DNA of 64,000 bases from the NCBI GenBank assembly GCA_035352955.1, contig DAOPYQ010000002.1, forward strand, positions 233,267 through 297,266, written 5' to 3'. The DNA comes from Candidatus Omnitrophota bacterium. Lineage in GTDB: Bacteria > Omnitrophota > Omnitrophia > Omnitrophales > Aquincolibacteriaceae. The notes beneath the pieces were generated by a model. It did not search any database and was not told where the DNA came from. It worked only from the letters and a program-made list of their open reading frames with translations. The translations under genes were made by a program, and so were the position numbers. How positions within the stretch are numbered: the first letter of the stretch is position 1; each line of letters opens with the position of its first letter. This document shows positions 186 to 37,860 of this stretch, piece after piece.

Positions 186-262
186 GCAGGATGACGGGTG
201 ACGGATAACGGATGGCGGAAAAACCGGCTTGTCGTCATCCGCCATCCTCCATCCGGTATCCG
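186..262. repeat. REP-like intergenic palindrome of the GGATGRCGGATGGCGGA family
   Basis: ggatgacgggtgacggataacggatggcggaaaaaccggcttgtcgtcatccgccatcctccatccgg lies between the folC start and the purH stop. Confidence 0.6.
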
Positions 263-263
263 A

Positions 264-1832
264 TCAGTGACGGAAATGCCGTTCGCCGGTAAAAGCCATC
301 GCGATGCCGGCCGCGTCACAGGCCGCAATGACATCGTTATCGCGGATGGAACCTCCGGGCTGGATGATGGCCTTGACCTTGTGTTTGGCCGCGATCTCGA
401 TCGAGTCCGGCATCGGAAAGAACGCGTCGGAACCGACATACGAACCTTCGGCGAGATAACCGGCCTTCTGAAGCGCGATCCCCATGGAATCCACGCGCGA
501 CATCTGTCCCGCACCGATCCCGACGGTGCGTTTGCCCTGCGTCAGCACGATCGCGTTCGACTTGACGACCTTCGAACACTGAAACGCAAAGACCAGGTCT
601 TCGATCTCGGCTTCCGAAAGCTTTGTTTTGGTCACAAATTTGATGTTTTTCCTGAATTCAGCCATATGGGTTTTAATCGGACGGTCCTTTTCCTGGACCA
701 GCACGCCGCTCCGGAGGACTCTCACGTCCAGAAGATTTTCCTCCCGGATCTTGTTGATCGTAATAATCCGGAGGTTCTTGCGCGCCTGAAGGGCCTTCAA
801 CGCGCCGGCCTTGAACGACGGCGCGACGATCACCTCAAAAAAGTTCAGTTTCTCGAGGATCTTCTCCGCGGTCTTGCGGTCACAATCGCGGTTGATCCCC
901 ACGATGCCGCCGAAGGCCGATAAAGAATCGCCGTCGATCGCCATCTCGACCGCAGTAACAATGTCCGGGTCCTGCGCGATCCCGCACGGGTTGTTGTGTT
1001 TGATCACACACGCCGCAGGCGCGCTGAATTCCGCAAGGATGTCGAGCGTGGCTTCGACATCGAGAAGATTATTAAAAGAAAGCTCCTTGCCGTGAAGCTG
1101 CGTCCAAGGTGCTTCCGACTGGGAAAGCGGCAGATAGAACGCCGCCTTTTGATGCGGGTTCTCGCCGTAACGGAGGTCCTGCCCCTTTTTAAAATGGAGC
1201 GCGAGCTGCTTCGGAAGGCCTTCCTCCTTATGTTTGCGGCGTTTGCCCATGTACTGGCTGATCACGGCATCATACGCGGCCGTTCGCTCAAAAACCTTGC
1301 AGGTTAGATCGAACCGCGTTTCGTCGGACACCGCGCCTTTGTATTCTTCCAGCTCCCGAGTCACACGCTCATAATCATTCACGTCCGTGATCACGGTGAC
1401 AGACTGGAAATTCTTCGCCGCGGAACGGAGCATCGAAGGACCCCCGATATCGACGAACTCGATCGCCTCTTCGAGCTCCAGATCGCCCTTACTCGTCGCG
1501 GATTCGAACGGATAAAGATTCACGACCACGAGGTCGATCGGCAGGATCCCATGCTTCTTGACCTGTTCGCGGTGGCTTTTCTTCGCGCGCAAGTACAGAA
1601 GACCGCCGTGGATCCTGGGATGGAGGGTTTTGACCCGTCCGTCGAGCATTTCGGGGAATCCGGTAAATTCGTCCACCGCTTTCGCGGGGACATGCGCTTC
1701 TTTCAGAGCCTTGAGCGTGCCGCCGGTCGAAAGGATCTCAACCCCGAATTTATGCAATGTTTTCGCGAAAGGAATGAGGCCGGTTTTATCGGAGACGCTG
1801 ATGAGGGCGCGACGAATGCGTTGGCGTGACAT
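264..1832 (-). CDS. purH: Bifunctional AICAR transformylase / IMP cyclohydrolase
   Basis: 522 aa. The N-terminal RALISVSDKTGL... MGS-like domain and the C-terminal AICARFT domain are typical of PurH. Confidence 0.9.
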   Translation of the reverse strand: MSRQRIRRALISVSDKTGLIPFAKTLHKFGVEILSTGGTLKALKEAHVPAKAVDEFTGFPEMLDGRVKTLHPRIHGGLLYLRAKKSHREQVKKHGILPIDLVVVNLYPFESATSKGDLELEEAIEFVDIGGPSMLRSAAKNFQSVTVITDVNDYERVTRELEEYKGAVSDETRFDLTCKVFERTAAYDAVISQYMGKRRKHKEEGLPKQLALHFKKGQDLRYGENPHQKAAFYLPLSQSEAPWTQLHGKELSFNNLLDVEATLDILAEFSAPAACVIKHNNPCGIAQDPDIVTAVEMAIDGDSLSAFGGIVGINRDCDRKTAEKILEKLNFFEVIVAPSFKAGALKALQARKNLRIITINKIREENLLDVRVLRSGVLVQEKDRPIKTHMAEFRKNIKFVTKTKLSEAEIEDLVFAFQCSKVVKSNAIVLTQGKRTVGIGAGQMSRVDSMGIALQKAGYLAEGSYVGSDAFFPMPDSIEIAAKHKVKAIIQPGGSIRDNDVIAACDAAGIAMAFTGERHFRH

Positions 1833-2685
1833 CTTCTTGGATCCTCCTAGTTAGCAAACGGTGAAGTTTCAGGGTTACCGGCCCGGGGACCTTGTTGCCG
1901 ATCATCCGGCCGTCAAGCTCTCGTACGGGAAGGACCTCCCAGGAAGTATTGCAAAGGAAAGCTTCATCCGCGTTGAAAAAATCATGCCGGGTCAAAGGCG
2001 TTTCGCGGACCCGGACCCCGAGTTCGCGAGCGCATTTTATCACAAAGCGCCGGGTCACTCCATTCAAGATTAGGTGCTCCGGCGGCGTCAACAGCACTGC
2101 TTCCTCCCCCCTCGGAGCACGGGTTCCCGAAGCTTCGGAGCCCCAGTCTCCGAAGCGGTATTTCACGAGGAAAAAGTTGCCGGTCCGGGTCTCGGCAAGA
2201 TAATTCCCCCGATCCAAAAAGAGCCATTCGAAGATCCCTTCCGGATGCGGCTCCGTGCTCGCCAGAATCGCCTGATGATAGACCGAGGCCTTGACCTGAT
2301 AAGGAAAAGCGTTTGCACTTCCCCGCGGGAACGACGACGTCTTCAAAGTGACACCCTTTTCATAAAAGTCCGGAGAGATCTTACGCGAACCGATTATGAC
2401 GAAAATTTTTCCGCCGCAAAACGTCAGCCTGACCGAAGTGTCTTCTTCGCCGGAAGTTCTGAGCGCTGACTCCGCTTCCCTGCGCAAACTCCGTCGTTCC
2501 GGAAAGGGCCGGCAGCCTACGGTCTTCGCCGACTCCTCAAGGCGGTCGAGATGATCTTCCAGCCGAAAGATCTTTCCTCCGTAGGCGCGCATACTTTCAA
2601 ACACTCCCCCGTCCTCCTCCCGCAGCAACGAAAAGGCCTGCCGGTCTGAAACTTCCCGTCCGTTGGAATAGACCCGGTACTTCAT
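1786..2685 (-). CDS. Class IV aminotransferase-fold protein, probably aminodeoxychorismate lyase (PabC-like)
   Basis: Class IV fold motifs FRLEDHLDRL and EAFLCNT. The start is placed at the internal MKYRVY so it does not overlap the upstream gene. It lies next to a PabB-like gene, and its 3' end overlaps the purH start by ~46 nt. Confidence 0.55.
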   Translation of the reverse strand: MKYRVYSNGREVSDRQAFSLLREEDGGVFESMRAYGGKIFRLEDHLDRLEESAKTVGCRPFPERRSLRREAESALRTSGEEDTSVRLTFCGGKIFVIIGSRKISPDFYEKGVTLKTSSFPRGSANAFPYQVKASVYHQAILASTEPHPEGIFEWLFLDRGNYLAETRTGNFFLVKYRFGDWGSEASGTRAPRGEEAVLLTPPEHLILNGVTRRFVIKCARELGVRVRETPLTRHDFFNADEAFLCNTSWEVLPVRELDGRMIGNKVPGPVTLKLHRLLTRRIQEDVTPTHSSRPHQRLR

Positions 2686-3833
2686 GACATCCTGTGGATG
2701 ATCTTTTTTCCGAGACGCTGGAACGGCTGCTCGATCCACCGGTAGGTCAGTGCGGAAATAGCAAGCGTTCCCACAAGCCCCACCAGAAAGATCATAAAAA
2801 AGTACAGGTTGGGGTGAAACGACGGATTGAACTTCTTCGCAAAACCGAACCAGAACCGGGTGAAACGGTCCAGGACAAAAAAATGACAGAGGTACGCACT
2901 AAAACTCACCTTCCCGACAAACCGGGTGAACCGGTTCACGAAGAAGGAAAACGGCCGCAAGGCAAGCGCCCAGGCCAGGAACAGGAACCCCGCACCGTGG
3001 ATGATGTGCGGCGGGATGACATCCCATTTCAGCTTGAAAAAACTTTCCATCAATAAACAATAAGCGCACAAGACAAGCAACACCCCCGCCGAGACAAGAT
3101 CCTTTTGTCGCGAACCCTCCGTCGCTGGCGCAGCCCCCTCAAAACGGTCCCGGAGCAAATGAAACAGAATGAAACCAAAGCCAAAAACAGGGAGCTGGTT
3201 GGGGAGCCAAAAATAGAGAAATTGACCCGCGATAAGGGGGTCTTTCGAAGGCGAAATCCATTGCTCGCCCAAAAAATTCGCCCCGAGCCGAAAAACCATC
3301 AAAAGGGCCAAGAGCAGCATGGATTTTTTGAGGCTCGAAACATACTTAAAGAAGAACGGGAGCAGGAGATAGAAATTCATCTCCACAGCAATGCTCCAGC
3401 CCCCCGGAACGACATTGTTGATGGTGTCGGGATTCCAGCCGTTCACGAACAGACAGGTCGATAAAACCCGCCAGAACGTGATCTCGTACGGAGGGGCGTA
3501 CAGCTGCTTGAACCCGGTGATCGCGATGTAAAAAAAGGCGGCCGCCCAAAACATCGGCGCGATCCTGAAAAAACGCCGGATAAAAAAGGCCCGGACGTGA
3601 CCGTCGCCTTTCTCTTTCCGGACATGGAAGGAATAAAAAAGCGTGAAGGCGGACACCACAAAAAAAAGCTGCACCCCGAACCGTACTGCCTGAGTCCACT
3701 CCGAAACGGCATTGGCGAACGGAATGCGTTGATCGGTGTGAACGAGAAGGACCAGCAGAAACGCCCAGCCGCGCAAGGCATCGATGAAGTCGAACTGCCG
3801 GAACTCTCTCAGCGCTTTTTCGTCATTACTCAT
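2682..3833 (-). CDS. Acyltransferase family 3 (OafA/OpgC-like) integral membrane protein
   Basis: 383 aa with about 10 hydrophobic helices. The N-terminal FDFIDALRGWAFLLVLLVH motif is typical of acyltransferase_3. Confidence 0.6.
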   Translation of the reverse strand: MSNDEKALREFRQFDFIDALRGWAFLLVLLVHTDQRIPFANAVSEWTQAVRFGVQLFFVVSAFTLFYSFHVRKEKGDGHVRAFFIRRFFRIAPMFWAAAFFYIAITGFKQLYAPPYEITFWRVLSTCLFVNGWNPDTINNVVPGGWSIAVEMNFYLLLPFFFKYVSSLKKSMLLLALLMVFRLGANFLGEQWISPSKDPLIAGQFLYFWLPNQLPVFGFGFILFHLLRDRFEGAAPATEGSRQKDLVSAGVLLVLCAYCLLMESFFKLKWDVIPPHIIHGAGFLFLAWALALRPFSFFVNRFTRFVGKVSFSAYLCHFFVLDRFTRFWFGFAKKFNPSFHPNLYFFMIFLVGLVGTLAISALTYRWIEQPFQRLGKKIIHRMS

Positions 3834-5274
3834 AATGTTGCTCTTCCGAGGCCGCCTTCAGCGCTTTCATCAACGCTTTCGCTTTGTGCAGCGTCTCTTC
3901 GTATTCTTTTTCCGGATCGGAATCATGGACGATCCCGGCTCCGACCTGCAGATGCCCGCGATCTTTCCGGAGAATCATCGTCCGGATCACGATATTGAGA
4001 TCCATGTCCCCGCACAGATCGATATAACCGAGCGACCCGGTATAGATCCCGCGCCGCACAGGCTCAAGCGCGTCGATGATCTCCATGCACCGGATCTTCG
4101 GGCACCCGGTGATGGTCCCGCCGGGGAAGATCGCCCGGACAAGATCAAAGGCGTCTTTCCCTTTTTTCAGCCGGCCGGTGATCTTCGAGACAATATGGAC
4201 GACATGGGAATATTTCTCAAGCGTCATGAATTCCCGGACCTTCACCGAGCGGTAATCGCACACGCGGCCGAGATCGTTCCTCTCGAGATCCACGAGCATC
4301 AAATGCTCTGCCCGCTCTTTGGGATTCCTCAAAAGCTTTTGACGCCATACCGCGGGGCGGTTCCTCTCCCCGCCCGAAGGACAAGTCCCGGCGATCGGAC
4401 GCGTTTCACAGATGCGTCCCGTTTTACGGATCAGCCTTTCCGGAGAACTGCTGATGATCTCGAGGTCCCCCACCCGGAAGAAACAGGAAAAAGGCGACGG
4501 ATTGATCGCCCTGAGTTTTCCGTAAAGCGCGGCCGGAGATCCGGAAAATCCGAACCGGAACCGCTGCGAAAGGTTCGCCTGATAAATATCTCCCGCCGCG
4601 ATGTAGTCCTTGGCTTTTTCCACCATCGCCTTGAACCGCCGCTTCGGCATCTCCGGCACGATCTCCTTCAAATGGAAAGGTTGCGATTTTACCGGCAGAG
4701 TCTCGAAGAATTTTTTTAATTTTTCGCAGCGTTCCCTGCACGTCTTGGCATTTTTAAAAACGTTCCGGCGGGAGGCACGCTGCGCGTCATACGCTACGAG
4801 GTAATAAACACGCCGGTGATGGTCATAAACGATCACCTCCCTGAAAAGGCCAAGGTGAAGCCGCGGAATCCCCAGTTCTTTTTTGGGACGGAAACCGATT
4901 TTGTCGCAAAGCTCCGCAAGCTCATAGCCGAAGTAACCGACAAACCCTCCGGTAAAGAACGGGTACTCCTTCCCGGACGAGCTGCGGTAACGCCGGAATA
5001 TCTTTTTAAGCGCGGCGAACGACTCCGCTGCCGGATATGTTTCGCGGGATTCCCCCGCAACGCGAAGCGAGGTTCCCTCTAACCGGACCTCGAGAACAGG
5101 GTCCATCCCGATGTAGGAATAAATCTGATCCGGCGGAGCGTATTGAGGAGAGTCGAGAAAAAAACAGGTTTTCGACGTTGCGTAAACCGCGCGAAAAACT
5201 TCCCACGGGGTTTTGGAAGATCGGAACTGTTCAACGTGAAGCGGCATAGGATGCAGCCCAAAGTAAAAAGACAC
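3826..5274 (-). CDS. pabB: Chorismate-utilising enzyme, aminodeoxychorismate synthase component I (PabB) or anthranilate synthase component I family
   Basis: 482 aa with the C-terminal chorismate-binding signature GGTITGCPKIRCMEIIDALEPVRRGIYTGSLGY. Confidence 0.75.
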   Translation of the reverse strand: MSFYFGLHPMPLHVEQFRSSKTPWEVFRAVYATSKTCFFLDSPQYAPPDQIYSYIGMDPVLEVRLEGTSLRVAGESRETYPAAESFAALKKIFRRYRSSSGKEYPFFTGGFVGYFGYELAELCDKIGFRPKKELGIPRLHLGLFREVIVYDHHRRVYYLVAYDAQRASRRNVFKNAKTCRERCEKLKKFFETLPVKSQPFHLKEIVPEMPKRRFKAMVEKAKDYIAAGDIYQANLSQRFRFGFSGSPAALYGKLRAINPSPFSCFFRVGDLEIISSSPERLIRKTGRICETRPIAGTCPSGGERNRPAVWRQKLLRNPKERAEHLMLVDLERNDLGRVCDYRSVKVREFMTLEKYSHVVHIVSKITGRLKKGKDAFDLVRAIFPGGTITGCPKIRCMEIIDALEPVRRGIYTGSLGYIDLCGDMDLNIVIRTMILRKDRGHLQVGAGIVHDSDPEKEYEETLHKAKALMKALKAASEEQHYE

Positions 5275-5312
5275 AGGGGACAGGCAGTCAATGAATGCCT
5301 GTCCCCTGTCTG
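5272..5312. terminator. Bidirectional terminator hairpin of a recurring family GGGGACAGGCA-N9-TGCCTGTCCCC
   Basis: ggggacaggcagtcaatgaatgcctgtcccctgtctgttttt lies between convergent/tandem minus-strand genes. Confidence 0.6.
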
Positions 5313-5318
5313 TTTTTA

Positions 5319-6644
5319 TTAGTCTTTATGCGAATAAAAGACGAGGCCGCTTGCGAGCTTGGGATAGAAATACGTCGACTTTTGCGGCATGCGCTCGTTC
5401 ACCGCGCCCATTTTCTCGAGCATCCCCACTTCGGGGGCCTGGAGAAAGAACGCGGCTTGGGCATTCTGCTTTTTCATAACATCCATCGTCCCGTCAACCG
5501 TATGATCGAAACGGAGAACGGATTCCCATTTTGTCTCGGGAAGATCGAGAAGCTTCGCGAAGATCAAGTGCCCGAGCATGTTCACGTTCAGATCGAACCA
5601 GACCTCCGGCTTTTCCTGTGCGACCTTCTGCCGGGCCTGGGCTTTGTCGAGAAGCTTGAGGAGGAACGTCCCGCCGCTTTTCAGCGTCAGACCGAACGTC
5701 ATCGGCTCCGTAGCTCTGGAAAGGACCATCGCTTCAATATCTCGAAGAGTGGCTTTTTCGACCTTAAAAAATCCTTCGAGCCGCTTGAGGATCTCCGCAT
5801 CGCTCATTCCGACGTCCAGAAGAATGCGGTGCGTAGGAAGCACGATAAATCCCGGGTCCTGAAAACTTACAAGCGCCATGTACCCGTAATCGGAAGGATA
5901 GGCTCCCGGAGGAGCGGCCAGCAATTCCTGCCGCTTGAGACGCGAATACTCGAGGTTCGTTTCGTAGCGATGGTGCCCATCGGCAATATAGACCTTTTTG
6001 GATTTCAAGCCTTCGTGGATCTTCGCGATGACACCGGCATCGCGGATCACAAGCAGACTGTGCTTGATCCCGTCATCGTCCGTAGCTGCAAAAACCGGAA
6101 CGGAGGTCTTGGGATCGACAAGCAGTTTGTGGATCGCTAAATTTTCGTCCTTGTAGAGCCCGAATACCGGAGAAAAGTTGGTCTGGGTCGTCTTCAGGAC
6201 CTTCATCCGGTCCACTTTGGGACCGCTCAACGTCTTTTCGTGAGGGACGATGATGCCTTTTTCAAAAGGTTCGAGTTTAACGCGGCCTAAAAGCGCCATG
6301 CGCCGCTTGGCGATCCCGGTAAGGGGATCCTTGAAATCCTGCGTATAAACATAAAAAGCAGGCTCTTTTTCTTTCGTGAGAAATCCCTGTTTGCACCATT
6401 CATTGAAAAAATCTCGGGCGCGGGTATAGGTGTTCTGTTGTTCGTTATCCGAGGCTTCCTTCTTATTCAGGACGAGCCGGACGCAATTCTGCGGGGAACG
6501 TTCGTAAAGCTTCTGCTGCTTTTCGGGAGAAATAACATCGTACGGGGGTGCAAGAACCAGGGAAACATCGATCTTTCGGGGATCGTAATGCCAAGCTTTC
6601 AGGGGCTGAAAATCAAGTACGGTATCGGTCGCGCAATGTGTCAT
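5319..6644 (-). CDS. DUF1015-family protein
   Basis: 441 aa. The N-terminus LKAWHYDPRKI...VLAPPYDVIS resembles the DUF1015 family. Confidence 0.5.
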   Translation of the reverse strand: MTHCATDTVLDFQPLKAWHYDPRKIDVSLVLAPPYDVISPEKQQKLYERSPQNCVRLVLNKKEASDNEQQNTYTRARDFFNEWCKQGFLTKEKEPAFYVYTQDFKDPLTGIAKRRMALLGRVKLEPFEKGIIVPHEKTLSGPKVDRMKVLKTTQTNFSPVFGLYKDENLAIHKLLVDPKTSVPVFAATDDDGIKHSLLVIRDAGVIAKIHEGLKSKKVYIADGHHRYETNLEYSRLKRQELLAAPPGAYPSDYGYMALVSFQDPGFIVLPTHRILLDVGMSDAEILKRLEGFFKVEKATLRDIEAMVLSRATEPMTFGLTLKSGGTFLLKLLDKAQARQKVAQEKPEVWFDLNVNMLGHLIFAKLLDLPETKWESVLRFDHTVDGTMDVMKKQNAQAAFFLQAPEVGMLEKMGAVNERMPQKSTYFYPKLASGLVFYSHKD

Positions 6645-6699
6645 AGGGGTGGAATCCTAACATAAGGGTTAAGGTTTGACAATAACATCGGAAAAACAG

Positions 6700-6765
6700 G
6701 CTAACGGATGGTGGAATGGGGATGACGAAAAACCAGTTTTTACGCCATCCGCCCTCCGAAATTCT
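6700..6765. repeat. REP-like intergenic palindrome of the same family
   Basis: taacggatggtggaatggggatgacg…ttacgccatccgccctccg lies between the DUF1015 gene and csaA. Confidence 0.55.
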
Positions 6766-6776
6766 TCATCCCCCCG

Positions 6777-7097
6777 TTACTTTACCTTCGCTCCGTCGGC
6801 GATCGGGCGATCCGTCGTCACAACGGTCAGCATGGTTTCATTAGATGCGGCCAAAAGCATCCCCTGGGACTCGACGCCACGGATCACCGCCGGATCAAGG
6901 TTGTCGACGATTACGATCTTTTTTCCCTTCAGCTGATCTTCGGTATAATGCGCCCGAATGCCGGCGACGATCTGCTTACGAACCTCGCCTACCTTGATTC
7001 CAAGGACATACAACCGATCCGCATTCGGATGCGGCGCAACAGTCTCGATTTCGGCAATTTTAAGTTCTAATTTCTGAAAATCTTCATAAGAAGCCAC
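6777..7097 (-). CDS. csaA: tRNA-binding protein (CsaA / Trbp111 / EMAP-like OB-fold)
   Basis: 106 aa containing LKIAEIETVAPHPNADRLYVLGIKVG...GVESQGMLLAA, a canonical tRNA_bind domain. Confidence 0.75.
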   Translation of the reverse strand: MASYEDFQKLELKIAEIETVAPHPNADRLYVLGIKVGEVRKQIVAGIRAHYTEDQLKGKKIVIVDNLDPAVIRGVESQGMLLAASNETMLTVVTTDRPIADGAKVK

Positions 7098-7402: not shown

Positions 7403-8521
7403 ATGGGCAAGATCAAGATCGCCATCGTCGGAACCGGCAATTGCGCAGCGTCGCTCGTGCAAGGGATCGAATATTACCGGGCTTTGGCTAACGAAAAACT
7501 ACCCAAAAACAAGCCGGTCGATCTCATGGGACTGATGAACTACAACATGGGCGGCTATTTTCCCCATGATATCGAAGTTGTCGCGGCCTTCGACATCGAC
7601 AAGCGGAAGGTTGGCGAGCGTCTCGATGTCGCTTTGAACGCAAAACCCAATTGCGTGTGGCCCATCGGCAATCCCCTCCCCAAGAGTAAGATCCGTGTCG
7701 AGATGGGGAATATCCTCGACGGCTACTCTGAACACATGGCGAATTACGCCGAGAACCGGACGTTCGTACCCGCGAACAAAAAACCCTGCAACGTAGAAAA
7801 GGTCCTGAAGGAAAGCGGTGCAGAGGTTCTTCTCAACTATCTCCCCGTCGGCTCGCAAAAAGCCACGGAATTCTATGCCGAGGCCTGTCTGAAAACAGGT
7901 GTCAGTCTCATCAACTGCATGCCGGTCTTCATCGTCTCCAATCCGGCATGGGCGAAGCGCTTTGAAGCGAAACGGATCCCCTGCGTCGGCGACGACATCA
8001 AGGCCCAGATCGGCGCAACGGTCACACACCGCACGCTCGCGAAGCTGTTCATGGACCGCGGCGTCAAGATCGACCGCACCTACCAGCTGAACACCGGCGG
8101 GAATACAGACTTCCTGAACATGCTTAACCGCACGCGCCTGGAATCAAAAAAGATCTCCAAAACCTCCGCGGTCCAGAGCCAACTCGATGTCCCGCTCGAT
8201 CCGGACAACATCCACATCGGCCCTTCGGACTACGTTCCCTGGCAGAACGACAACAAAGTCTGCTACCTTCGTATCGAAGGCCGCGGGTTCGGCGGCTTCC
8301 CGGTGACGGCAGAAATGCGCCTCTCCGTCGAAGATTCTCCGAATAGCGCCGGCTGCTCCATCGACGCCATCCGGGCCTGCAGGATCGCACGCGACCGCAA
8401 GATCGGCGGCCCGCTCATTTCCATCTCGGCTTTTACGATGAAACATCCGCCCAAACAAATCGTGGACTACGATGCCAAGGAGCTGGTGCGCAAATTCATC
8501 CAGGGCACCTGCCCTCGGTAG
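7403..8521 (+). CDS. ino1: myo-Inositol-3-phosphate synthase (bacterial/archaeal short type)
   Basis: N-terminus MGKIKIAIVGTGNCAASLVQGIEYYR. An RBS-like AGGGAGG lies 6 nt upstream of the ATG, and the upstream region is AT-rich and promoter-like. Confidence 0.85.
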   Translation: MGKIKIAIVGTGNCAASLVQGIEYYRALANEKLPKNKPVDLMGLMNYNMGGYFPHDIEVVAAFDIDKRKVGERLDVALNAKPNCVWPIGNPLPKSKIRVEMGNILDGYSEHMANYAENRTFVPANKKPCNVEKVLKESGAEVLLNYLPVGSQKATEFYAEACLKTGVSLINCMPVFIVSNPAWAKRFEAKRIPCVGDDIKAQIGATVTHRTLAKLFMDRGVKIDRTYQLNTGGNTDFLNMLNRTRLESKKISKTSAVQSQLDVPLDPDNIHIGPSDYVPWQNDNKVCYLRIEGRGFGGFPVTAEMRLSVEDSPNSAGCSIDAIRACRIARDRKIGGPLISISAFTMKHPPKQIVDYDAKELVRKFIQGTCPR

Positions 8522-8530
8522 GACGTCCCG

Positions 8531-13491: not shown

Positions 13492-13784
13492 TTCTGGAAT
13501 TTCCTTCCCGGTCCACGTTGACCTTCCTCATCGCCTGCCACCCTTGGCAGGCCGGCGGCACTGACTCTCATTGATTCTTTAACCGAGGTCAGTACTGCAC
13601 TGAACCTCCCTTTGACTTCAATGGAGCGTTCAGTGCGGTATTATACTCAAAGCTCCGGGAATGGGAACTAGGAAAGAGTGTAAAACTGAGGGCCACGCCC
13701 GCCTGCCGGCGAGGCAGGCACCACGGACATCGGGCCACGATCTGCCTTCTCCGTGGGCCGTGGCCCGTTGATCGTGGACCGGTC

Positions 13785-19508: not shown

Positions 19509-19605
19509 GATGTTTTCGCCTCTCCTTAGCGGACTTGCCCAACAGCAAGTCCTGTTTCTAACGGGGTGAATGATCTTAAAAGTTCCGCTAGAATTGACCC
19601 GGACG

Positions 19606-19795
19606 GCGGCCCGACCGTCCCTGAAGCCTCCGGAAGGGAAATCTCCTCCCGAACCCTTGGAAATAATGAAAGCTGAAAGTCAAATGCCGACTGTTTTCGT
19701 TATCGGCATCTTCCGCTCCGATATTGACCGCGTTATACCCCCCAGGGGGGGGGGAATCCGAAACGCAAAATCCTAAATCCAAAAAACTTTAATCC
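19606..19795. repeat. ~190-bp direct repeat, copy 1 (flanks the COG1373 ATPase gene); contains C6-A-G9 and other hairpins
   Basis: Near-identical to 21113..21302 (…gaaataatgaaagctgaaagtcaaatgccgactgtt..cgttatcggcatcttccgctccgatattgaccgcgttataccccccagggggggggaatccgaaacgcaaaatcctaaatcc…). Confidence 0.8.
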
Positions 19796-21112: not shown

Positions 21113-21302
21113 CGGCCCGACCGTCCCTGAAACCCACGGAAGAGAATTCTCCTCCCGAACCCTTTGAAATAATGAAAGCTGAAAGTCAAATGCCGACTGT
21201 TTCCGTTATCGGCATCTTCCGCTCCGATATTGACCGCGTTATACCCCCCAGGGGGGGGGGAATCCGAAACGCAAAATCCTAAATCCAAAAAACTTTAAAT
21301 CC
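21113..21302. repeat. ~190-bp direct repeat, copy 2
   Basis: Same sequence as 19606..19795 in the same orientation. Confidence 0.8.
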
Positions 21303-26393: not shown

Positions 26394-26650
26394 CGATATT
26401 CTCCGACTTTACGAACGACGAGCAACGGATCACGAGTAACGAGCCGCGTCACTCGTCGCTCGTGACCCGTTACTGATGCGTCAATGAGTTGCAGAAGGGA
26501 GGGAACCTTAAGTCCCCCTTGCCTTAGATTTTATTCCAAAAAGGGTTGGCAAAGCTCGTCCCAATTTCAACTTCGTTGAAATTGATAGGCCTTGGGACTA
26601 CAATGCAACCCGACCCGCAATATATCTCACTGAAAGGATTCGTATTCTAT

Positions 26651-27439
26651 ATGAAGACCGCTGAAATTAAAAGAACGCTCTTGGAAGCCATCGCTCGGGC
26701 CGGAAAGATCGTCAAAGCGAATTTCGGAAAGCAGCAAAAGATCACGAAAAAGGGTGAATTCAACCTCGTCACCGAGATCGACAAAGCTTCCGAAAAAGCC
26801 GCGCTCGCGGTCATCCTCAAACGTTTCCCGGACCATTCTGTCCTTGCCGAAGAATCCCCCGAAGTGGCGGGCTCCGGCTGCCGTTGGATCATCGACCCGA
26901 TCGACGGCACCACGAACTTCGCTCATGGATTCCCCATCGTTTCGATCTCCATCGGATTTGAGCATCACGGCCGTCTCTTGATGGGCGGGGTGCTTGACCC
27001 GACGCGCGATGAACTTTTTTTCGCAGAACGCGGCCGGGGCGCTTTTCTAAACGGGAAGCGGATCCGGGTCTCGACCGCCAAAACGCTCTCGGATTCCCTT
27101 GTCGTCACGGGATTCCCCTACGACCGGAAAGAGAACCCGGAAGTCTACCTCGCCTTGCTCCGGACATTCCTCACCCGCGTCCAGTGTATCCGCCGCACAG
27201 GCTCCGCCGCGATAGACCTCTGTTACGTGGCCTGCGGGCGCTTCGACGCTTATTATGAAATGAAGCTGAGGCCCTGGGATAAGGCCGCCGGAATGATCGT
27301 CGCGGAAGAAGCGGGCGCAAAACTCACGGATTTTTCGGGAAAACCGCTCACGCTCACAAGTGTTCAGAACCTTGCGACGAACGGCCGGGTCCATCAGGAA
27401 ATGCTTCGCCTGTTGAAACCGTTCAAGAACTTAAAATAG
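26651..27439 (+). CDS. suhB: Inositol monophosphatase family protein (SuhB/ImpA)
   Basis: IMPase signatures WIIDPIDGTTNFAHGFP and a metal-binding region. The start is chosen at MKTAEIK; a longer ORF begins at 26546. Confidence 0.8.
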   Translation: MKTAEIKRTLLEAIARAGKIVKANFGKQQKITKKGEFNLVTEIDKASEKAALAVILKRFPDHSVLAEESPEVAGSGCRWIIDPIDGTTNFAHGFPIVSISIGFEHHGRLLMGGVLDPTRDELFFAERGRGAFLNGKRIRVSTAKTLSDSLVVTGFPYDRKENPEVYLALLRTFLTRVQCIRRTGSAAIDLCYVACGRFDAYYEMKLRPWDKAAGMIVAEEAGAKLTDFSGKPLTLTSVQNLATNGRVHQEMLRLLKPFKNLK

Positions 27440-27525
27440 CGCAACGCACAACGCGCAACAGAAAGACCTTTGTTCTTTGCGTTGGGCGTAGTTCTCAATG
27501 TCACTGGATCGAAATGGTTGTAGCA

Positions 27526-30578: not shown

Positions 30579-30599
30579 TGAATGCAAAAAAAAGGGAAC

Positions 30600-30632
30600 A
30601 GACAATGATGGCATGCCTGTCCCCTTTTTAAC
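30600..30632. terminator. Terminator hairpin, diverged member of the same family
   Basis: aaaaaaaagggaacagacaatgatggcatgcctgtccccttttt lies downstream of the pyrE stop. Confidence 0.45.
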
Positions 30633-30638
30633 TTAAGA

Positions 30639-31199: not shown

Positions 31200-31205
31200 T
31201 TTCCG

Positions 31206-31967: not shown

Positions 31968-32002
31968 GAAGAGCCCTTCGAACTGGAAGACGCGGACCGC
32001 GG

Positions 32003-32368: not shown

Positions 32369-32393
32369 TTTTAAGTTCCTTATCGTTTAAGAC

Positions 32394-33722
32394 TTAGGGG
32401 ATCTTTTCAAAAGCCGCAAGAAAAAAACCGTCAGTCGCGCTCTGCGGAGGCCATAATTTCAGATAGTCCGCCCCATCCTCCCCACAAGGCGCCAATCTCA
32501 ATTCGGGATGCGCCTCAAGGAATTTCCGGACCACGTCCTCGTTCTCGGCGGTCTCCACCGAACACGTCGCGTAATATAGTTTGCCGTTTTTCCCGAGATA
32601 TGGCAAAGCTTTTTCAAGGATCCCGAGCTGCTGCGCCTGAAGTTCACTGAACCATTCCTCGGTCAGTTTCCATTTTGCGTCCGGATTGCGACCCAGGGTC
32701 CCGGTCCCTGAACAGGGCGCATCCACAAGGATCCTGTCAAACCCCGCCTTGGCGATCTTGATCTCGGACATCCGTTCGAGTTCGGCAGGAAACACGTTAA
32801 AGACCCCCGCGCGCTTCGCTCGTTTTTTTAACTCTTCCAGTTTGTACGAGCGGAGATCCGTTGCCACGATCCGGCCTTTGTTCTCCATGATCGCCGCCAG
32901 AAGTAACGTCTTTCCGCCGGCGCCCGCACAAACGTCCCAAATATTTTCTCCGGGTTTTGGCCCTACCGCCTGACAGACCAGCTGGCTTCCCTCGTCCTGA
33001 ACCTCGAACCATCCGTCGCGAAAGGCCGGGGTATCGAACACGTTACGCCGCTCCTGAAGGACGAGACCATAATAGGAGCGTGCCGTCTGGTTGGCCTCCG
33101 CGCCGAACCGGCGGAACATATCCACCAGTTTCTTCCGGCTGATCTTCAGCGTGTTGGCCCGCAGGACAAGAAGCGGTCGCTGCTGGAAGAACCCGAGCAA
33201 CCTTTCCGTTTCGGCCACCCCGAACATCTCCACCCAGTGCTGCACAAGCCAGAGCGGAAAAGAATAAAGCAACGCCATCATTTCTTCTTTGGATTTCGTT
33301 CCGGACGTTTCCGGAAGGAGGTGTTCCCGGAGCGCCGCGTAGACTTTCTCGTTCTCTTTGAAGATCTCGCGGAACTCTTCTTTCGTGACAAGGTCCTCTT
33401 TGACCGCCGCAAAAAGGCAGAACCGCTCGGCCTTCTCCGCATCGGTCAATAGAGGCCGGCCCTTCGCTTTTTCGATCCAGGCTTGGAGAAAACTTTTGTG
33501 GCGGAACGCGCTATAAATAGTTTCGGAGAGAAATTTGCGGTCGCGGGACCCGACCTTCTTGCGGTTCTGGAAGAAGTATTTCGAAAGACAGCGGTCCGCC
33601 GGCACGGGATCGTTCTCGATCCTCTGCCAAAGCTCTCCGGCCAGCCGAAGCTGCGAAAAAAGAAGCCGCCGTTCGTTGTCTTTGATCATCCCGCATCTCT
33701 CATCATGTTCCCCATGATACAC
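32394..33722 (-). CDS. rsmB: 16S rRNA (cytosine-C5) methyltransferase, RsmB/Sun family
   Basis: Motifs IWDVCAGAGGKT, DRILVDAPCSGTGTLGRNPD and a catalytic Cys (ATCS). Confidence 0.8.
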   Translation of the reverse strand: MYHGEHDERCGMIKDNERRLLFSQLRLAGELWQRIENDPVPADRCLSKYFFQNRKKVGSRDRKFLSETIYSAFRHKSFLQAWIEKAKGRPLLTDAEKAERFCLFAAVKEDLVTKEEFREIFKENEKVYAALREHLLPETSGTKSKEEMMALLYSFPLWLVQHWVEMFGVAETERLLGFFQQRPLLVLRANTLKISRKKLVDMFRRFGAEANQTARSYYGLVLQERRNVFDTPAFRDGWFEVQDEGSQLVCQAVGPKPGENIWDVCAGAGGKTLLLAAIMENKGRIVATDLRSYKLEELKKRAKRAGVFNVFPAELERMSEIKIAKAGFDRILVDAPCSGTGTLGRNPDAKWKLTEEWFSELQAQQLGILEKALPYLGKNGKLYYATCSVETAENEDVVRKFLEAHPELRLAPCGEDGADYLKLWPPQSATDGFFLAAFEKIP

Positions 33723-33809
33723 ACCCGGCGCACGTCACGGTGATTTAAAATAAAAAGGCCTGATCTTGAGGACCAGGCCTTTTGACGATCTCAGATTAAA
33801 CGCGAACGC

Positions 33810-34247
33810 CTAATTCTCTTCGCCCGCCTTCAAGAGCCTCTGGCGGATATCCGATTCCCGGTCGAAGCGGTTCTGCCGCGACACATCCAACGTGCGCTGC
33901 GCGGAGGTCAGTTGCTGCTGAATGTAAGGGTCGTTATTGCCGCTGCGCGCGGTTTTGAAAGCATCTGCGGCGCTCCAGGCATGGTTGGCGAGCAAGGGAC
34001 CAAGGCCCGCCCAGATAATACCGCCGCCCACGAGCGTCGCAAGCAAAATGGTCGTCGTAACCGCGGCGACTTCAATGCCCGCCATGATCTTCGTCTTCGT
34101 GGCGCCGATCTGGCCGTTCATGGCCTGACCGGTGGTCGGAAGAAGTAACGATGCCCCGAATTCTTTCGCGCCCTGCGCAAAAACGGGAGTGGTCAACGAG
34201 GCAAAGATCAATAAAAAGGCGGCCAAACAAGCAAAGGTTTTCTTCAT
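33810..34247 (-). CDS. Hypothetical membrane/secreted protein
   Basis: 145 aa with a signal peptide and one additional hydrophobic segment. Confidence 0.35.
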   Translation of the reverse strand: MKKTFACLAAFLLIFASLTTPVFAQGAKEFGASLLLPTTGQAMNGQIGATKTKIMAGIEVAAVTTTILLATLVGGGIIWAGLGPLLANHAWSAADAFKTARSGNNDPYIQQQLTSAQRTLDVSRQNRFDRESDIRQRLLKAGEEN

Positions 34248-34427
34248 GGAAATTCTCCTTCTGTTGATGATTTTCCTTCCCCTAGAGTAACGGTTTTTTC
34301 AAGAAAATCTTTACCCCGTTAGAGTCTTAAATCACTCGGTCCGCAATACCCATGATAAAGAAACGGAGGAATCTATAAAAGGCTCTCTTAAAGACCCGCG
34401 AGGTGAAGGCTCTAACGGGGTGAACCC

Positions 34428-35954
34428 TTACTCGGCTTTGGAAAAACTCTCCGGCCCCCAGTTCGAAAGGATCTCCGCAAAAAGACGGACGCCGTACCCG
34501 GTCGCGCCCTTCGGACAATCGAACCTGTTCTGAGTAATGTTCGCGACGCCCGCGATATCGAGATGGACCCACGGCGTCTTCGCCGGCACGAATTCTTTGA
34601 GGAACATCGTCGCCGTAATGGTTCCGGCGTAACCGTCCCCGACATTCTTGAGATCGGAATGGTGGGATTTTATGCACTCGCCGTATTCTTCCCAAAGCGG
34701 GAGCTGCCAGCAACGTTCCCCGGTCTTCTCCCCCGCTTTCACGATCCCGTCGATCAGTTTCTGATCGTTGCCGAGGATGCCGCTCGTCTTGTCTCCGAAC
34801 GTGTGGTGGCACATCCCCGTCAGCGTCGCAGCGTCAAGGATCGCCTGCGGTTCGTATTTTGCCGCGTACGACAGCGCATCCGCCAGGATCAAACGGCCCT
34901 CCGCATCGGTGTTCATCACCTCCACGGTCTTCCCGTTGAACATCTTGATGATATCGCCCGGACGTTGCGGATCGTTCGCGACGTTGTTCTCGACGCACGG
35001 CGCGAGTCCGACGATATGGAGCGGCAGCTTCAACTCCGCCGCGAGCGCCATCGTCGCGATCACCGCGATCGCGCCGGACTTATCGTATTTCATTTCTTCC
35101 ATGCTCTTGGAGGGCTTGATCGAGATCCCGCCGGTGTCGAAGGTGACGCCTTTGCCGATCAAACAGACCGTTCCCTTGTCTTTGTGTTCGATGCCGTACT
35201 CAAGCGCGATCAGGACCGGCGGCGTCGGGCTCCCCTGGTTCACCGCAAGGATCCCGTTCATCCCCATTTTTTTGAGTTCCGCAAGACCGAACACCTGGCA
35301 GGACAACTTCTTCTCCGCGGCGATCTTCTTCGCTTCCTGCGCAAGACGCGGCGGGTTCATGATGTTCCCCGGCTCGTTGTTAAGATCACGGGCAAGAAGC
35401 ACTGCCGCGGAGATCTTCCCGGACCGCACCATCACGGAGCGCATTTCCTTCACCGCTTCCTTTTGTTCCGTTACAAGCTCGATGGACGCCGGAGTTTTGG
35501 CGGGTTCGTTCTTCTTTTGGGTCTTGTATTTGTCAAAACGATACGAAGCTAAAAAGGAGATCTCGGTAAAAATCCCCGCGGCTTGCTCCGCGCTGACCGT
35601 GTCGGTCAGAAAAGAATCGAGAAACACGCGAACCTTTGCGGCCTTCTTGCCGGAAGCGAGCGCCACCACGGACCCGACCGCCTTCCTCAGGGAAGCAACC
35701 TTGAGATCCTTTTTCCCGCCGAGACCGAGCAGCGCCGTTTCCGAAGCCTGCCGGTAACCGGTCTGAAAAGAGCTGAACACCTCTCCCGCTTTACCGGAAA
35801 AGATCTTTTTCGCGATGGCAGCCTCGGCCGCCTTGGCAAAAACAGGATCGATCTTCCGGAGCGCCGTTAGATCCTTTTCTCCTTTGAAATAGCCGATCAC
35901 AAAAAGGTCCGCCTTGGGAGCTGATTTCGTCAGATTCGTCAAAGAAACTTTCAT
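34428..35954 (-). CDS. pepA: Leucyl aminopeptidase (M17)
   Basis: Motifs NTDAEGRLILADALSYA and the M17 metal-ligand pattern. Confidence 0.85.
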   Translation of the reverse strand: MKVSLTNLTKSAPKADLFVIGYFKGEKDLTALRKIDPVFAKAAEAAIAKKIFSGKAGEVFSSFQTGYRQASETALLGLGGKKDLKVASLRKAVGSVVALASGKKAAKVRVFLDSFLTDTVSAEQAAGIFTEISFLASYRFDKYKTQKKNEPAKTPASIELVTEQKEAVKEMRSVMVRSGKISAAVLLARDLNNEPGNIMNPPRLAQEAKKIAAEKKLSCQVFGLAELKKMGMNGILAVNQGSPTPPVLIALEYGIEHKDKGTVCLIGKGVTFDTGGISIKPSKSMEEMKYDKSGAIAVIATMALAAELKLPLHIVGLAPCVENNVANDPQRPGDIIKMFNGKTVEVMNTDAEGRLILADALSYAAKYEPQAILDAATLTGMCHHTFGDKTSGILGNDQKLIDGIVKAGEKTGERCWQLPLWEEYGECIKSHHSDLKNVGDGYAGTITATMFLKEFVPAKTPWVHLDIAGVANITQNRFDCPKGATGYGVRLFAEILSNWGPESFSKAE

Positions 35955-36086
35955 CGTGTATCTCCTTATTGTGTGAATGATTCGTCATTCTGAGACCGTC
36001 CCGTTTTGGGACTTACGAAGAATCTCCCAAATAAGATCCTTCGACTTCGCGCCTGCGGCGCTTCGCTCAGGATGACACCGTCGGTG

Positions 36087-36443
36087 TCATTTCGAAAAGA
36101 TCATCTTGAGAGCGACCAACAGCAGAAAACCCCCGAACAACCGCTTCATCAGGGTCTCCGGAAGATTCTGCACAAAATGCGCGCCGAGCCAGCCTCCGAC
36201 CACGAACCCCGCGCAGATCAGCGCGGCCATCCCCAGCTTCACGTTCCCGCTCTGGTAATAGCGCCACGCCGCAAGTAATCCGATGGGCGGCACCATAATG
36301 GCCAGCGTCGTGCCCTGCGCCTGGTGTTGGGTCAGTCCGAAAAAGTAAACCATCGCCGGGATCATGACCGCACCGCCGCCGATCCCGAACATCCCGCCGA
36401 ACACGCCCGCGACAAGACCTAGAAGGATATATGCAAGCGTCAT
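36087..36443 (-). CDS. TauE/SafE (DUF81) family membrane transporter, short form
   Basis: 118 aa, four TM helices, and the GxGGG motif FGIGGGAVMIPAMV. Confidence 0.65.
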   Translation of the reverse strand: MTLAYILLGLVAGVFGGMFGIGGGAVMIPAMVYFFGLTQHQAQGTTLAIMVPPIGLLAAWRYYQSGNVKLGMAALICAGFVVGGWLGAHFVQNLPETLMKRLFGGFLLLVALKMIFSK

Positions 36444-36538
36444 ATCTCGCCTCCCGTTACATCATGAGAGCTGTTGTCAGCTTAATCGCGCAACGCTCGT
36501 TGATCGTTGTGCGTTGACCGTTGCCCGTTGCGCTGCTT

Positions 36539-37039
36539 TTAGTATCCCGCCCGATTCAACGCGATATTCACGAGCCTGTCCACGTGCTTAATCTTCGGAT
36601 GTTCGCGCGGCACGTGAAAATAACTGACTCGCTGAAATTTTTTCTCAAGCGCTTTGACTTCCATAAAGAACGGCCGAAGATGTTCGGCCTTGAGCTTATA
36701 GATGCCGGAAAGTTGCCGGGCCACGAGTTCGCTATCGAGGAAATAATCCGCTTCTTCGATCCCGAGTTCGGCGGCAAGTGTCAGTCCGCGGATCACGGCC
36801 GTATATTCCGCGATATTGTTGGTCGCGTCTCCGATGGTTTCGCCGTGATCGGTGAGTTTTTGGTCCTGGGCATCGCAAACGAGAACGCCGATCGCCGCGG
36901 GGCCGGGGTTGCCGCGCGCGCCGCCGTCGGAATAAATCTTTCCCTTCTTAGCGGATAACGGATGGTGGATGGTGGATGGTGTTTGGGCTTTTTCGCCCTC
37001 CGCCTTCCGCCCTCCTTCATCCCGTTTCAGAGGTACCAT
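36539..37039 (-). CDS. rnhA: Ribonuclease HI (true start probably downstream of the annotated ATG)
   Basis: RNase H core IYSDGGARGNPGPAAIG...TNNIAEYTAVIRGL...D. The ATG-defined N-terminal ~30 codons overlap a REP-like palindromic element (36953..37018). Confidence 0.7.
   Translation of the reverse strand: MVPLKRDEGGRKAEGEKAQTPSTIHHPLSAKKGKIYSDGGARGNPGPAAIGVLVCDAQDQKLTDHGETIGDATNNIAEYTAVIRGLTLAAELGIEEADYFLDSELVARQLSGIYKLKAEHLRPFFMEVKALEKKFQRVSYFHVPREHPKIKHVDRLVNIALNRAGY
36953..37018. repeat. REP-like palindrome of the same family
   Basis: gcggataacggatggtggatggtggatggtg…cgccctccgccttccgccctcc lies between cysE and rnhA. Confidence 0.55.
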
Positions 37040-37042
37040 CCT

Positions 37043-37747
37043 TTATTCATTCCCTGACTTCTTTTGCTGCTGCCCCTTATGCTGCGCTTCGATCTGTTCG
37101 ACTTCTTTTTGGAGTTCCAGAACGCGGTTCTTGAGTTCCTTGACGGGGTCCGGGAGATCTCCGTGTTCGAGATCGATCTCTTCGGGCCGCTTGCCGTCGA
37201 TCCGCACGATCTCGGCAGGCACGCCGACCACGGTGCAATTATCCGGCACCGGATGGATCACAACCGATCCGCCGCCGATCTTCACATGATCGCCGATCCG
37301 GATGTTGCCAAGCACTTTGGCGCCCACGCCGACCACCACGCTGTTCCCGAGGGTCGGGTGACGTTTGCCGCGTTCTTTCCCGGTGCCGCCGAGCGTCACA
37401 CCCTGATAGATCGTCGCGTTCTCACCGATCTCCGTCGTTTCCCCGATCACGACCCCCATGCCGTGATCGATAAAAATACCGGGGCCGATCTTCGCGCCGG
37501 GATGGATCTCCACGCCGGTCAGGAAACGCGCGATCTGGGAAATAAGACGCGGAATAAAAGGGATCCGGAGCAGCTGCAGAACATGCGCAAAACGGTAGAG
37601 AAGGATCGCGTGAAACCCCGGATATAAGAAAAGGACCTCAAGAACCCCAAGCGGCGTCCGGGCGGCCGGATCGCGCTCAAAGCAGGCCTTGAAGTCGCGG
37701 TAGACTCTATAGAAAGGATAATGTTTCATAGCCAGGATTATACTCAT
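37043..37747 (-). CDS. cysE: Serine O-acetyltransferase
   Basis: SATase N-terminal domain followed by hexapeptide repeats (IHPGAKIGPGIFIDHGMGVVIGETTEIG). Confidence 0.85.
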   Translation of the reverse strand: MSIILAMKHYPFYRVYRDFKACFERDPAARTPLGVLEVLFLYPGFHAILLYRFAHVLQLLRIPFIPRLISQIARFLTGVEIHPGAKIGPGIFIDHGMGVVIGETTEIGENATIYQGVTLGGTGKERGKRHPTLGNSVVVGVGAKVLGNIRIGDHVKIGGGSVVIHPVPDNCTVVGVPAEIVRIDGKRPEEIDLEHGDLPDPVKELKNRVLELQKEVEQIEAQHKGQQQKKSGNE

Positions 37748-37779
37748 TCATTACGGGATGGGCAATTGATTCAAAAACT

Positions 37780-37860
37780 GGATGAAGGATAACGGAAGAA
37801 GGATGGAGCCTAGTTTGTCGCCATCCACCATCCGCTGCCCTCCATCCGTCTTTTCCGGTT
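37780..37860. repeat. REP-like palindrome of the same family
   Basis: ggatgaaggataacggaagaaggatggag…tcgccatccaccatccgctgccctccatccg lies between cysE and ychF. Confidence 0.55.

Follow-up and report, generated by a model that had tools for sequence, protein, structure and literature searches.

We analysed a 64,000-nucleotide stretch of DNA from a Candidatus Omnitrophota bacterium (assembly GCA_035352955.1, contig DAOPYQ010000002.1), hereafter the window, and found in it six copies of a hairpin whose arms are tandem heptamer repeats. With moderate confidence, we read these copies as selfish stem-loops that lack an open reading frame (ORF) of their own, resemble the intervening sequences of ribosomal RNA (rRNA), and persist at the ends of genes. 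The initial annotation of this DNA had described four of the sites as copies of one family of short palindromes, similar to repetitive extragenic palindromic (REP) elements. This family is indeed present in the sequence, and we add two further members. The copies are named c1 to c6 throughout, and L and P numbers denote loci and orthologues of relatives.

Each copy is built of a 5′ arm of three to four tandem GGATGRN heptads, a loop, and a 3′ arm of complementary NYCATCC heptads. Both arms were found in 6/6 copies, and the purine arm comes first in all of them. Tandem Repeats Finder reported a period of 7 and 2.4-4.4 units in every arm, in agreement with the heptad runs detected by regular expressions. 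The stems carry a mismatch every 7 nt, at the degenerate position of the heptad, and the loop of the short copies is itself short, A-rich at first and then T-rich. The six copies, found in 74 kb of this genome, are:

c1, 186-262: 5′ arm at 189-219 (GGATGAC GGGTGAC GGATAAC GGATGGC), loop of about 18 nt at 220-235, 3′ arm at 236-262.
c2, 6705-6771: a degenerate copy with arms CGGATGG TGGAATG GGGATGA and GCCATCC GCCCTCC GAAATTC TTCATCC, loop GAAAAACCAGTTTTTAC.
c3, 36953-37022: arms (CGGATGG/TGGATGG)x4 and CGCCCTC CGCCTTC CGCCCTC CTTCATCC.
c4, 37780-37848: arms TGGATGA AGGATAA CGGAAGA AGGATGG and GCCATCC ACCATCC GCTGCCC TCCATCC.
c5, 39015-39178: the long form, 164 nt, which had been called a miniature inverted-repeat transposable element (MITE); arms at 39019-39047 and 39150-39172.
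c6, 39842-39958: an inverted copy of the long form inside a giant ORF, with a 41-nt internal deletion between CCCCAA direct repeats.

The motif that had been taken to unite these sites is common to the arms of all copies, although it proved to be part of tandem heptad arrays and not just a single motif. Its excess over chance is clear. Allowing one mismatch at most, GGATGGYGGA has 33 matches in the window, compared with 11.8 ± 3.8 in dinucleotide shuffles (largest 22), and GGATGNNGGATG has 29, compared with 5.5 ± 2.6 (largest 14); 20 of these 29 fall inside the six sites. Runs of at least three heptads number nine in the window and 0.13 in shuffles (largest 1). One match, at 33687-33705, was considered as an additional element and rejected as a chance match. 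Folding energies also departed from those of shuffled sequences for c1 (z = -3.96), c3 (z = -3.6), c4 (z = -4.13), and c5 (z = -6.43). The remaining two copies are decayed: c2 is as stable as its shuffles (z = -0.19), and c6 (z = -1.58), which is read through in frame, has one arm reduced to GGAGGA/GGAGGAC.

No Rfam family was found for the hairpins, or for a module nested in the loop of c5, when the window was searched at gathering thresholds, positions 36400-40100 at E ≤ 1, and 12 cross-phylum loci in addition. A literature search with the arm sequences returned unrelated primer matches only. Among public contigs of the same population, which derive from anaerobic-digester metagenomes and include the NCBI metagenome-assembled genome GCA_035403665.1 and ENA ERZ795026 NODE_13 (201 kb), the sites were 100% identical and no polymorphism was seen.

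Nearly all genes of the window lie on the minus strand and are separated by very short spacers. On this strand, copies c1 to c5 begin 0-20 nt past the stop codon of the upstream gene. Specifically, c1 lies 1 nt past the purH stop (264-266, minus), with a folC-like gene downstream; c2 lies 5 nt past the stop (6777-6779) of a gene with a tRNA-binding domain, with the ATG (6642-6644) of a DUF1015 gene 60 nt farther on; c3 lies 20 nt past the cysE stop; c4 lies 17 nt past the ychF stop (37866-37868); and c5 abuts the giant ORF, 0-6 nt past its stop (39179-39181). The distance from a copy to the next start codon ranges from 9 to 60 nt. Copies c1, c2, c4, and c5 are wholly in spacers, and c3 and c6 lie inside ORFs (rnhA and the giant ORF, respectively). 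The earlier description of real REP-like palindromes in spacers directly after genes is thus borne out, but its placement of copies between convergent genes is not: no copy lies there, the neighbouring genes all being on the minus strand.

Hairpins of this type extend far beyond the window. We scanned species-representative genomes for three GGATGRN units, which yielded at least 120 loci, and scanned viral contigs likewise; a pair was defined as two opposite-strand arrays within about 200-250 nt, and the results that follow hold among the matches listed. These came from Acidobacteriota, Chloroflexota (including Herpetosiphon), Planctomycetota, Gemmatimonadota, Verrucomicrobiota, Cyanobacteria, Bacteroidota, and others. 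The purine arm came first in 29/29 pairs in genomes and in 9/9 pairs in viral contigs (38/38). The canonical element has 4+4 units and reads GGATGAA GG(AT/CG)GAA GGATGAA GGATG, followed by a loop of 16-170 nt and the mirror arm. Long ORFs typically stop between -30 and +17 nt from the element edge, the TGA of GGATGA frequently serving as their stop. Convergent genes flank many of the copies, and one copy (L121) sits between tRNA genes. Other copies are in frame within conserved domains, namely in MnmG, PriA, a short-chain dehydrogenase/reductase, TsaD, and MurG, where they are read as the peptide KDEGGRMKDE...SSFILHPSS. Because complete hairpins lie inside housekeeping genes, these observations argue for insertion and not for repeat growth in place.

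A second line of evidence connects heptad arms with PF05635, the family of the 23S rRNA intervening-sequence protein. Genes of this family, usually lying between complementary heptamer arms, are found at the following loci:

L126, 5490-6015: PF05635 gene.
L130, 5348-5949: PF05635 gene.
L131, 5536-6139: PF05635 gene.
L014, L054, L059, and L067: PF05635 genes.
L132-L211: PF05635 genes.

In three Omnitrophota relatives, the gene lies between complementary heptad arrays, with GCCACAC, GCACAAC, and GGGCCAC as units. Among the at least 120 loci chosen by GGATG and listed, four hold a PF05635 gene, in 4/4 cases beside or between the arrays and with the purine arm first. The reverse test took 80 metagenomic loci picked solely by homology to PF05635 (four-sequence profile). 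At these loci, period-7 arrays occurred at 2.67/kb within 250 nt of the ORF and at 0.23/kb farther away, a difference of about 12-fold, and periods 5 and 6 were not enriched beside the ORFs. An array adjoined the ORF in 58/80 loci and did so on both sides in 46/80, and the arms were complementary in 31 of the 57 loci with room on both sides. In 30 loci the G-rich arm led, and in 4 the C-rich arm did. Cassettes span a median of 490 nt, their unit varies by locus, and eight of the loci also have ORF-less arrays of the cassette's own unit nearby. A probe of the 23S rRNA segment matched 0/80 of these loci, and no PF05635 homologues were found in the viral loci with GGATG arrays among the matches listed. 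Our literature search found no report linking PF05635 to heptamer repeats. The tie between heptad arms and the PF05635 gene therefore runs both ways: arms turn up at loci selected by the gene, and the gene is seen among loci selected by the heptads.

We compared the junctions of the window with seven syntenic loci of relatives. Spacers at junctions without an element measure -4 to 68 nt, and those with a heptad hairpin or array measure 70-145 nt. At the cysE-rnhA junction, a GGATG-type element is present in the window, L124/L125, L126, L127, and the orthologues P0002-P0011, and is absent from P0032 (21-nt spacer, from gene coordinates), L130, and L131. The closest relatives by RNase H identity, L128 (91%) and L129 (87%), carry at this junction a like-built hairpin of GTACGGN heptads with a similar CGTAAAAAC...TTTTC loop. 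At the ychF-cysE junction, the units are GGATGG in the window and L127, GGGACTC in L129, and GGGGAAC in L130, and there are none in L124, L126, and L131. The loops of c1 and c2 are like those of the relatives' junction hairpins and unlike the module of c5.

GGATG is the commonest of several unit families in the window, and turnover is fast. The other heptad features are:

36497-36531: a (CGTTGNN)5 heptad array in the rnhA-tauE spacer.
13721-13777: a CCACGNN / NNCGTGG heptad hairpin, 8 nt past the stop of a 1907-aa minus-strand ORF.
26410-26475: an (ACGAGNN)5 / (NNCTCGT)4 heptad hairpin in the spacer between divergent genes.
27439-27500: a decayed CAACG-type heptad hairpin, directly past the stop of the plus-strand ORF 26546-27439.

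The rnhA-tauE spacer measures 95 nt in the window, compared with 10-15 nt in array-free relatives, and in L129 it holds a GTACGGR heptad hairpin. The fast turnover reflects either unit families replacing one another at a few permissive sites or concerted evolution of the arms by slippage and quasi-palindrome correction.

According to the reading that we favour, the copies would be selfish insertions that establish themselves and persist at the borders of genes, 0-20 nt past stop codons, in a very compact genome. The window copies would belong to the heptamer-repeat inverted pairs of bacteria, whose larger members carry a PF05635 gene in the loop, and the short copies may descend from such cassettes. 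Their arms would evolve fast by slippage and by correction from arm to arm, and a copy that overran a start codon would be absorbed into the coding sequence, as in rnhA. The transcript of an intact copy is predicted to form a stem of about 26 bp with periodic mismatches. The likeliest effect on RNA would be that of a long double-stranded stem between cistrons, acting as a target of ribonuclease III (RNase III) and/or as a barrier to 3′ exonucleases, and not that of an intrinsic terminator.

Several observations weigh against this reading. Neither an empty site nor a target-site duplication could be defined at the window copies, so that mobility in this genome is something that we infer. At the same junctions, the heptad units of close relatives differ (GTACGGN in L128 and L129, GGGACTC, and GGGGAAC), and concerted evolution in situ could produce such differences without transposition. 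A tblastn search with PF05635 proteins gave no match in the window and an extra 9.7 kb, and Pfam searches of ten small or flanking ORFs of the window found no PF05635 gene, no transposase, and no Y1. The variant heptad GGCGG, which forms the second unit of the arm at the 5′ side of the ORF, removes exactly the in-frame TGA; its conservation can be explained by this removal and need not mean recognition by a protein. An interpretation of GGCGG as a mismatch for protein recognition was accordingly weakened, as it removes the in-frame TGA in read-through copies. Lastly, the sense strand folds better in 10 of the 17 testable cross-phylum cases, with the antisense strand better in 5 and 2 ties, which is not significant. 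In c4, the sense strand folds 12 kcal/mol better than the antisense strand, but within the window as a whole the comparison is mixed; the folding therefore does not demonstrate selection on the RNA hairpin.

We further propose, tentatively, that the ORF-less hairpins and the PF05635 cassettes may together form one widespread and so far unrecognised class of mobile stem-loops. In this class, the heptad stem would be what the PF05635 protein works on, whether in mobility, maintenance, or processing, and the class could explain both the intergenic excess of heptamers and the origin of the rRNA intervening sequences. The heptamer-repeat excess and the rRNA intervening sequences with an S23p/PF05635 ORF both lack an accepted explanation, and the link makes both testable. 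If the proposal were true, the GGATG family would be one lineage of this class, entering gene ends and coding regions as its arms supply stops, starts, and one open frame.

As an alternative, the copies could have arisen by the growth of simple sequence repeats (SSRs) in situ, with slippage making the heptamer arrays and quasi-palindrome correction (template switching) keeping them complementary, without transposition and without function. We consider this unlikely. Such growth fits the excess of heptameric SSRs within bacterial intergenic DNA (PMC4692102), the different units with similar loop and position at orthologous junctions of relatives, the at least four further unit families in the window, and the varying arm lengths. 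However, it does not readily account for one GGATG-type unit at six sites of this genome and at several in other genomes, or for complete in-frame elements within conserved housekeeping domains of several phyla, where 7-nt slippage would not be tolerable. In addition, the composite formed by c5 and c6 includes non-repeat sequence, the polarity is purine-first by 38 to 0 among the matches listed, and the 4+4 architecture is common across phyla.

It is improbable that the copies act as intrinsic or bidirectional terminators, or as operon punctuation selected by the host, which was the functional interpretation initially given. Their position after stop codons, and the many copies between convergent genes in other phyla (among the matches listed), would suit this role, as would c4, where UUUUU comes after the stem on the sense strand, with a promoter-like TTGCCC-17-TATAAT beyond it (37765-37737, minus strand). 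Yet a terminator consensus scan called 0 of the window copies, UUUUU follows the stem in c4 alone, c1, c3, and c5 have no U-tract, and c3 and c6 lie inside ORFs; the claim of transcription termination at these sites is not supported. One copy lies between tRNA genes, the same junctions in relatives manage with spacers of 3-40 nt, and neither mismatched 26-bp stems nor a heptad sequence fixed across phyla is needed for termination.

We also give little credence to an origin as REP elements or REPINs (REP doublets forming hairpins), moved by a REP-associated tyrosine transposase (RAYT; TnpA-REP, an HUH Y1 transposase) acting on the single-stranded hairpin. The window copies, six in 74 kb, resemble these elements in being extragenic, palindromic, and present more than once, as well as the presence of several families per genome with sequences that differ between relatives. 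Y1 transposases recognise imperfect hairpins, and the fixed mismatch that is often found in one arm resembles these. On the other hand, the ten small or flanking ORFs scanned in the window include no Y1 transposase. The arms consist of tandem heptads without being palindromes themselves, a GTAG-like 5′ tetranucleotide is missing, the flanks simply continuing the heptad spacer, and the gene found inside such repeats is PF05635 and not a transposase.

A role as arrays that bind a regulator is similarly improbable. CsrA recognises a GGA motif, which GGAUG resembles, and the purine arm offers TGA and ATG to each of the three frames and, in L124 and L126, contains both the cysE stop and the rnhA start. 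Binding by a regulator was likewise argued for the TAACTGA heptamer repeats (MacGregor 2015). In the hairpins, however, such motifs would be sequestered in the stem, the GTACGGR, CAACGNN, and CCACGNN units of the same genomes lack GGA, stop, or start signals, and the distance to the downstream start varies from 9 to 60 nt.

The long form bears on the remaining alternative. The loop of c5 consists of a left end resembling a short hairpin (39019-39072, which aligns to c3) and a separable module of about 95 nt (~39060-39152). A single composite underlies c5 and c6, which lie about 670 nt from each other in inverted orientation and have arms and interior in common, and the alignment of c3 with the left end of c5 includes part of the loop. 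The short copies share with one another the arms and the A-rich...T-rich loop only. The module occurs upstream of ychF without heptad arms in two relatives: in L124 in the orientation of c5 (62/91 identical, 68%), and in L127 inverted (69/80 identical, 86%). No direct repeats (target-site duplication) flank the copies, and neither the window nor the loci of relatives yielded a transposase with such ends. Since the module occurs armless, and short hairpins occur module-free in many phyla, the long form is a composite. The basic unit is the short hairpin, and the long form a short hairpin with a nested module, not the parent of the short forms. That the short copies are deletion derivatives of the 164-nt MITE at 39015-39178, in miniature or solo terminal-inverted-repeat form as the initial annotation held, is very improbable: heptad arms are found in all copies and the left end of the long form can be aligned with c3, but relatives have the module on its own upstream of ychF, armless and pointing either way, short hairpins are widespread in its absence, and the loops of c1 and c2 are unlike it.

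The module is also of interest in its own right. A conserved sequence of 80-95 nt lies just upstream of ychF in the window (~39060-39152), L124 (~8020-8130), L127 (~1395-1470), and L130 (~7990-8055). Its orientation in the window is that of L124 and is opposite in L127 and L130, and a second copy lies inside the giant ORF. This module may be a small element that is mobile or invertible, or else a leader RNA.

The copies affect how gene starts are called, most clearly in the following gene:

36539-37039, minus strand: rnhA, RNase HI family, 166 aa, with its sole canonical start ATG at 37037-37039.

This ATG sits 3 nt past the cysE stop (37043-37045), and c3 lies entirely within the ATG-defined 5′ end of rnhA, reading ..RDEGGRKAEGEKAQTPSTIHHPLSAKKGK... 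Between c3 and the conserved KIYSDGG core of rnhA there is no ATG, GTG, or TTG. Many RNase H orthologues have 137 aa and start with MKKGKIYSDGG, where the window reads AKKGK, the Met codon of the ancestral start having become GCT. In at least 15 element-bearing orthologues (including P0002-P0006, P0009, P0020, and P0027), the frame is open through the element from an upstream ATG, and both arms are translated, as ..GGGRRAEGEK..PSTIHHP.S... The RNase H forms of 152 aa start at the ATG of the last GGATG unit, and in L124 and L126 the purine arm holds both the cysE stop (GGATAA or GGATGA) and the rnhA ATG (GGATGA or GGATGG). A downstream start of rnhA is unlikely, because no start codon lies below c3 and orthologues keep the frame open through the element. 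The overlap of the element with the ATG-defined 5′ end, as first described, is thus confirmed, but the non-ATG start then proposed downstream of it is not. Most likely, c3 is translated as an N-terminal extension of RNase H, and the peptide predicted for a translated element is MVPLKRDEGGRK....

Public annotations place the folC start 18 nt past the purH stop, at the in-arm ATG of c1 (243-245). This start adds 22 element-encoded residues (MADDDKPVFPPSVIRHPSSCFP) before the next in-frame ATG at 177-179 (also L212 11588). YchF has an annotated N-terminal extension of 39-50 aa in L124 (8025-9236) and L125 (3316-4560), because the ORF stays open through the upstream module; here, another spacer element shifts a called gene start. 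For annotation, this means that the elements shift true gene boundaries. They give stop codons to upstream genes, and downstream genes receive start codons and N-terminal extensions from them (rnhA, probably also folC, and probably ychF in relatives). Gene callers and orthologue comparisons should reckon with element-encoded peptides, including the inserts in housekeeping enzymes.

A separate structure surrounds the end of ychF. Its stop codon is enclosed by a perfect 15-bp hairpin at 37850-37886 (CTTTTCCGGTTTTCT...AGAAAACCGGAAAAG), and a stop-enclosing hairpin is also found in L130 and L129 (CTTTTCCGGTT/AACCGGAAAAG type). The ychF stop hairpin of L127 has changes on both sides (CTCTTTCGATTT/AAATCGAAAGAG), and L124 has a shorter hairpin around the stop.

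The window contains further repeats and features. The giant ORF (39179-64000, minus strand) runs off the window; it comprises more than 8273 aa within it, and the NCBI annotation gives 10,513 aa. Inspected by eye, parts of the translation resemble a sugar transferase, a PP2C phosphatase, HEAT repeats, methyltransferases, and an HD-GYP domain. Two structured repeats, each about 72 nt long, occur in the giant ORF in at least nine copies, all in frame and on the same strand, and are read as the peptides ..RQDIHSPARTRAGTKEVPAEMR.. and ..LN.YSS.S.PAA..GRAEMR... These repeats appear to act as linkers between blocks of the ORF, as if genes had been stitched together by readable palindromic repeats. 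A different repeat, GTCATCCTGAGCG.AGCG...GAAGGATC, occurs at 35955-36086 and 39535-39583. At the former site it fills the tauE-pepA spacer, which measures 132 nt, compared with 18-31 nt in relatives, and at the latter the giant ORF contains it as two tandem 21-nt copies, in frame. A further repeat, about 110-130 nt long, is present twice, at 19680-19790 and 21186-21296, and combines a C6-A-G8 hairpin with an (AATCCNA)4 heptad array after it. Finally, an nhaA-I RNA motif was identified at 19601-19656 on the minus strand (Rfam RF03057, 53.9 bits compared with a gathering score of 37).

The elements can be compared with several known systems. Heptamer repeats have reportedly been known since 1990, when Mazel described the short tandemly repeated repetitive (STRR) heptamers of cyanobacteria. 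Heptameric SSRs are over-represented in bacterial spacers, as exemplified by (GGGAATC)n in Xanthomonas and (GGGGAYT)n in Nostoc (Rehm et al. 2015, PMC4692102). The Xanthomonas arrays mostly have about four units, and 70-75 of them form convergent inverted pairs able to fold into stem-loops; the positions of heptameric SSRs are conserved between species, and their length and sequence vary (PMC4692102). The elements described here are alike in having 7-nt units, about four per array, an intergenic location, and inverted pairs. Unlike those heptamers, GGATGRN has no G-tracts, so that no G-quadruplex is expected, and the paired form is the rule. Moreover, the GGATG family occurs in many phyla, with copies in frame in genes, and the link to PF05635 is not found in those papers.

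The TAACTGA direct repeats of Beggiatoaceae, Cyanobacteria, and Bacteroidetes provide another case of a heptamer shared across distant phyla, for which horizontal transfer is suspected without a known mechanism (MacGregor 2015, PMC4679880). They lie at gene junctions, supply stops for each of the three frames, and can extend into the end of the upstream ORF (PMC4679880). Those repeats are direct arrays just upstream of start codons, with one inverted pair reported, whereas the window copies and the other GGATG elements are inverted pairs placed just past stop codons.

The 23S rRNA intervening sequence of Coxiella has a terminal stem of 28 bp, with one mismatch and a bulge, and an S23p ORF in its loop; RNase III cuts within the stem, and the element has long been suspected to be mobile (PMC4990558). 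In Coxiella and Leptospira, the loop of such sequences holds a PF05635 ORF or nothing, and they are sporadic and regarded as selfish (PMC4990558). The elements studied here likewise have a long terminal stem (21-28 nt, three to four heptads) and a loop with or without a PF05635 ORF. The likeness of the stems (~28 bp = 4 x 7) is one of length. In contrast to the rRNA elements, those described here lie in messenger RNA spacers and ORFs and not in helices 9, 25, or 45 of 23S rRNA, and the window copies are ORF-less.

With REP elements, bacterial interspersed mosaic elements (BIMEs), and REPINs, the hairpins have in common that they are short palindromes lying outside and after genes, that a genome has several families of them, and that a gene flanked by its own inverted repeats is the suspected autonomous partner. 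They differ in their tandem-heptad arms and in the absence of a GTAG-type motif. The flanked gene also differs from RAYT: here it encodes a four-helix-bundle, Avd-like PF05635 protein with no known catalytic activity, and not an HUH transposase. Rickettsia palindromic elements (RPEs), which are 100-150 nt long and have no heptads, occur in frame in protein-coding genes and are translated as an extra peptide; to our knowledge, they are restricted to one genus. The GGATG elements are alike in being palindromic repeats read in frame inside genes, but their sequence is unrelated. What is new here is a variant, the GGATGRN inverted pairs, of an already known and as yet unexplained kind of heptamer repeat.

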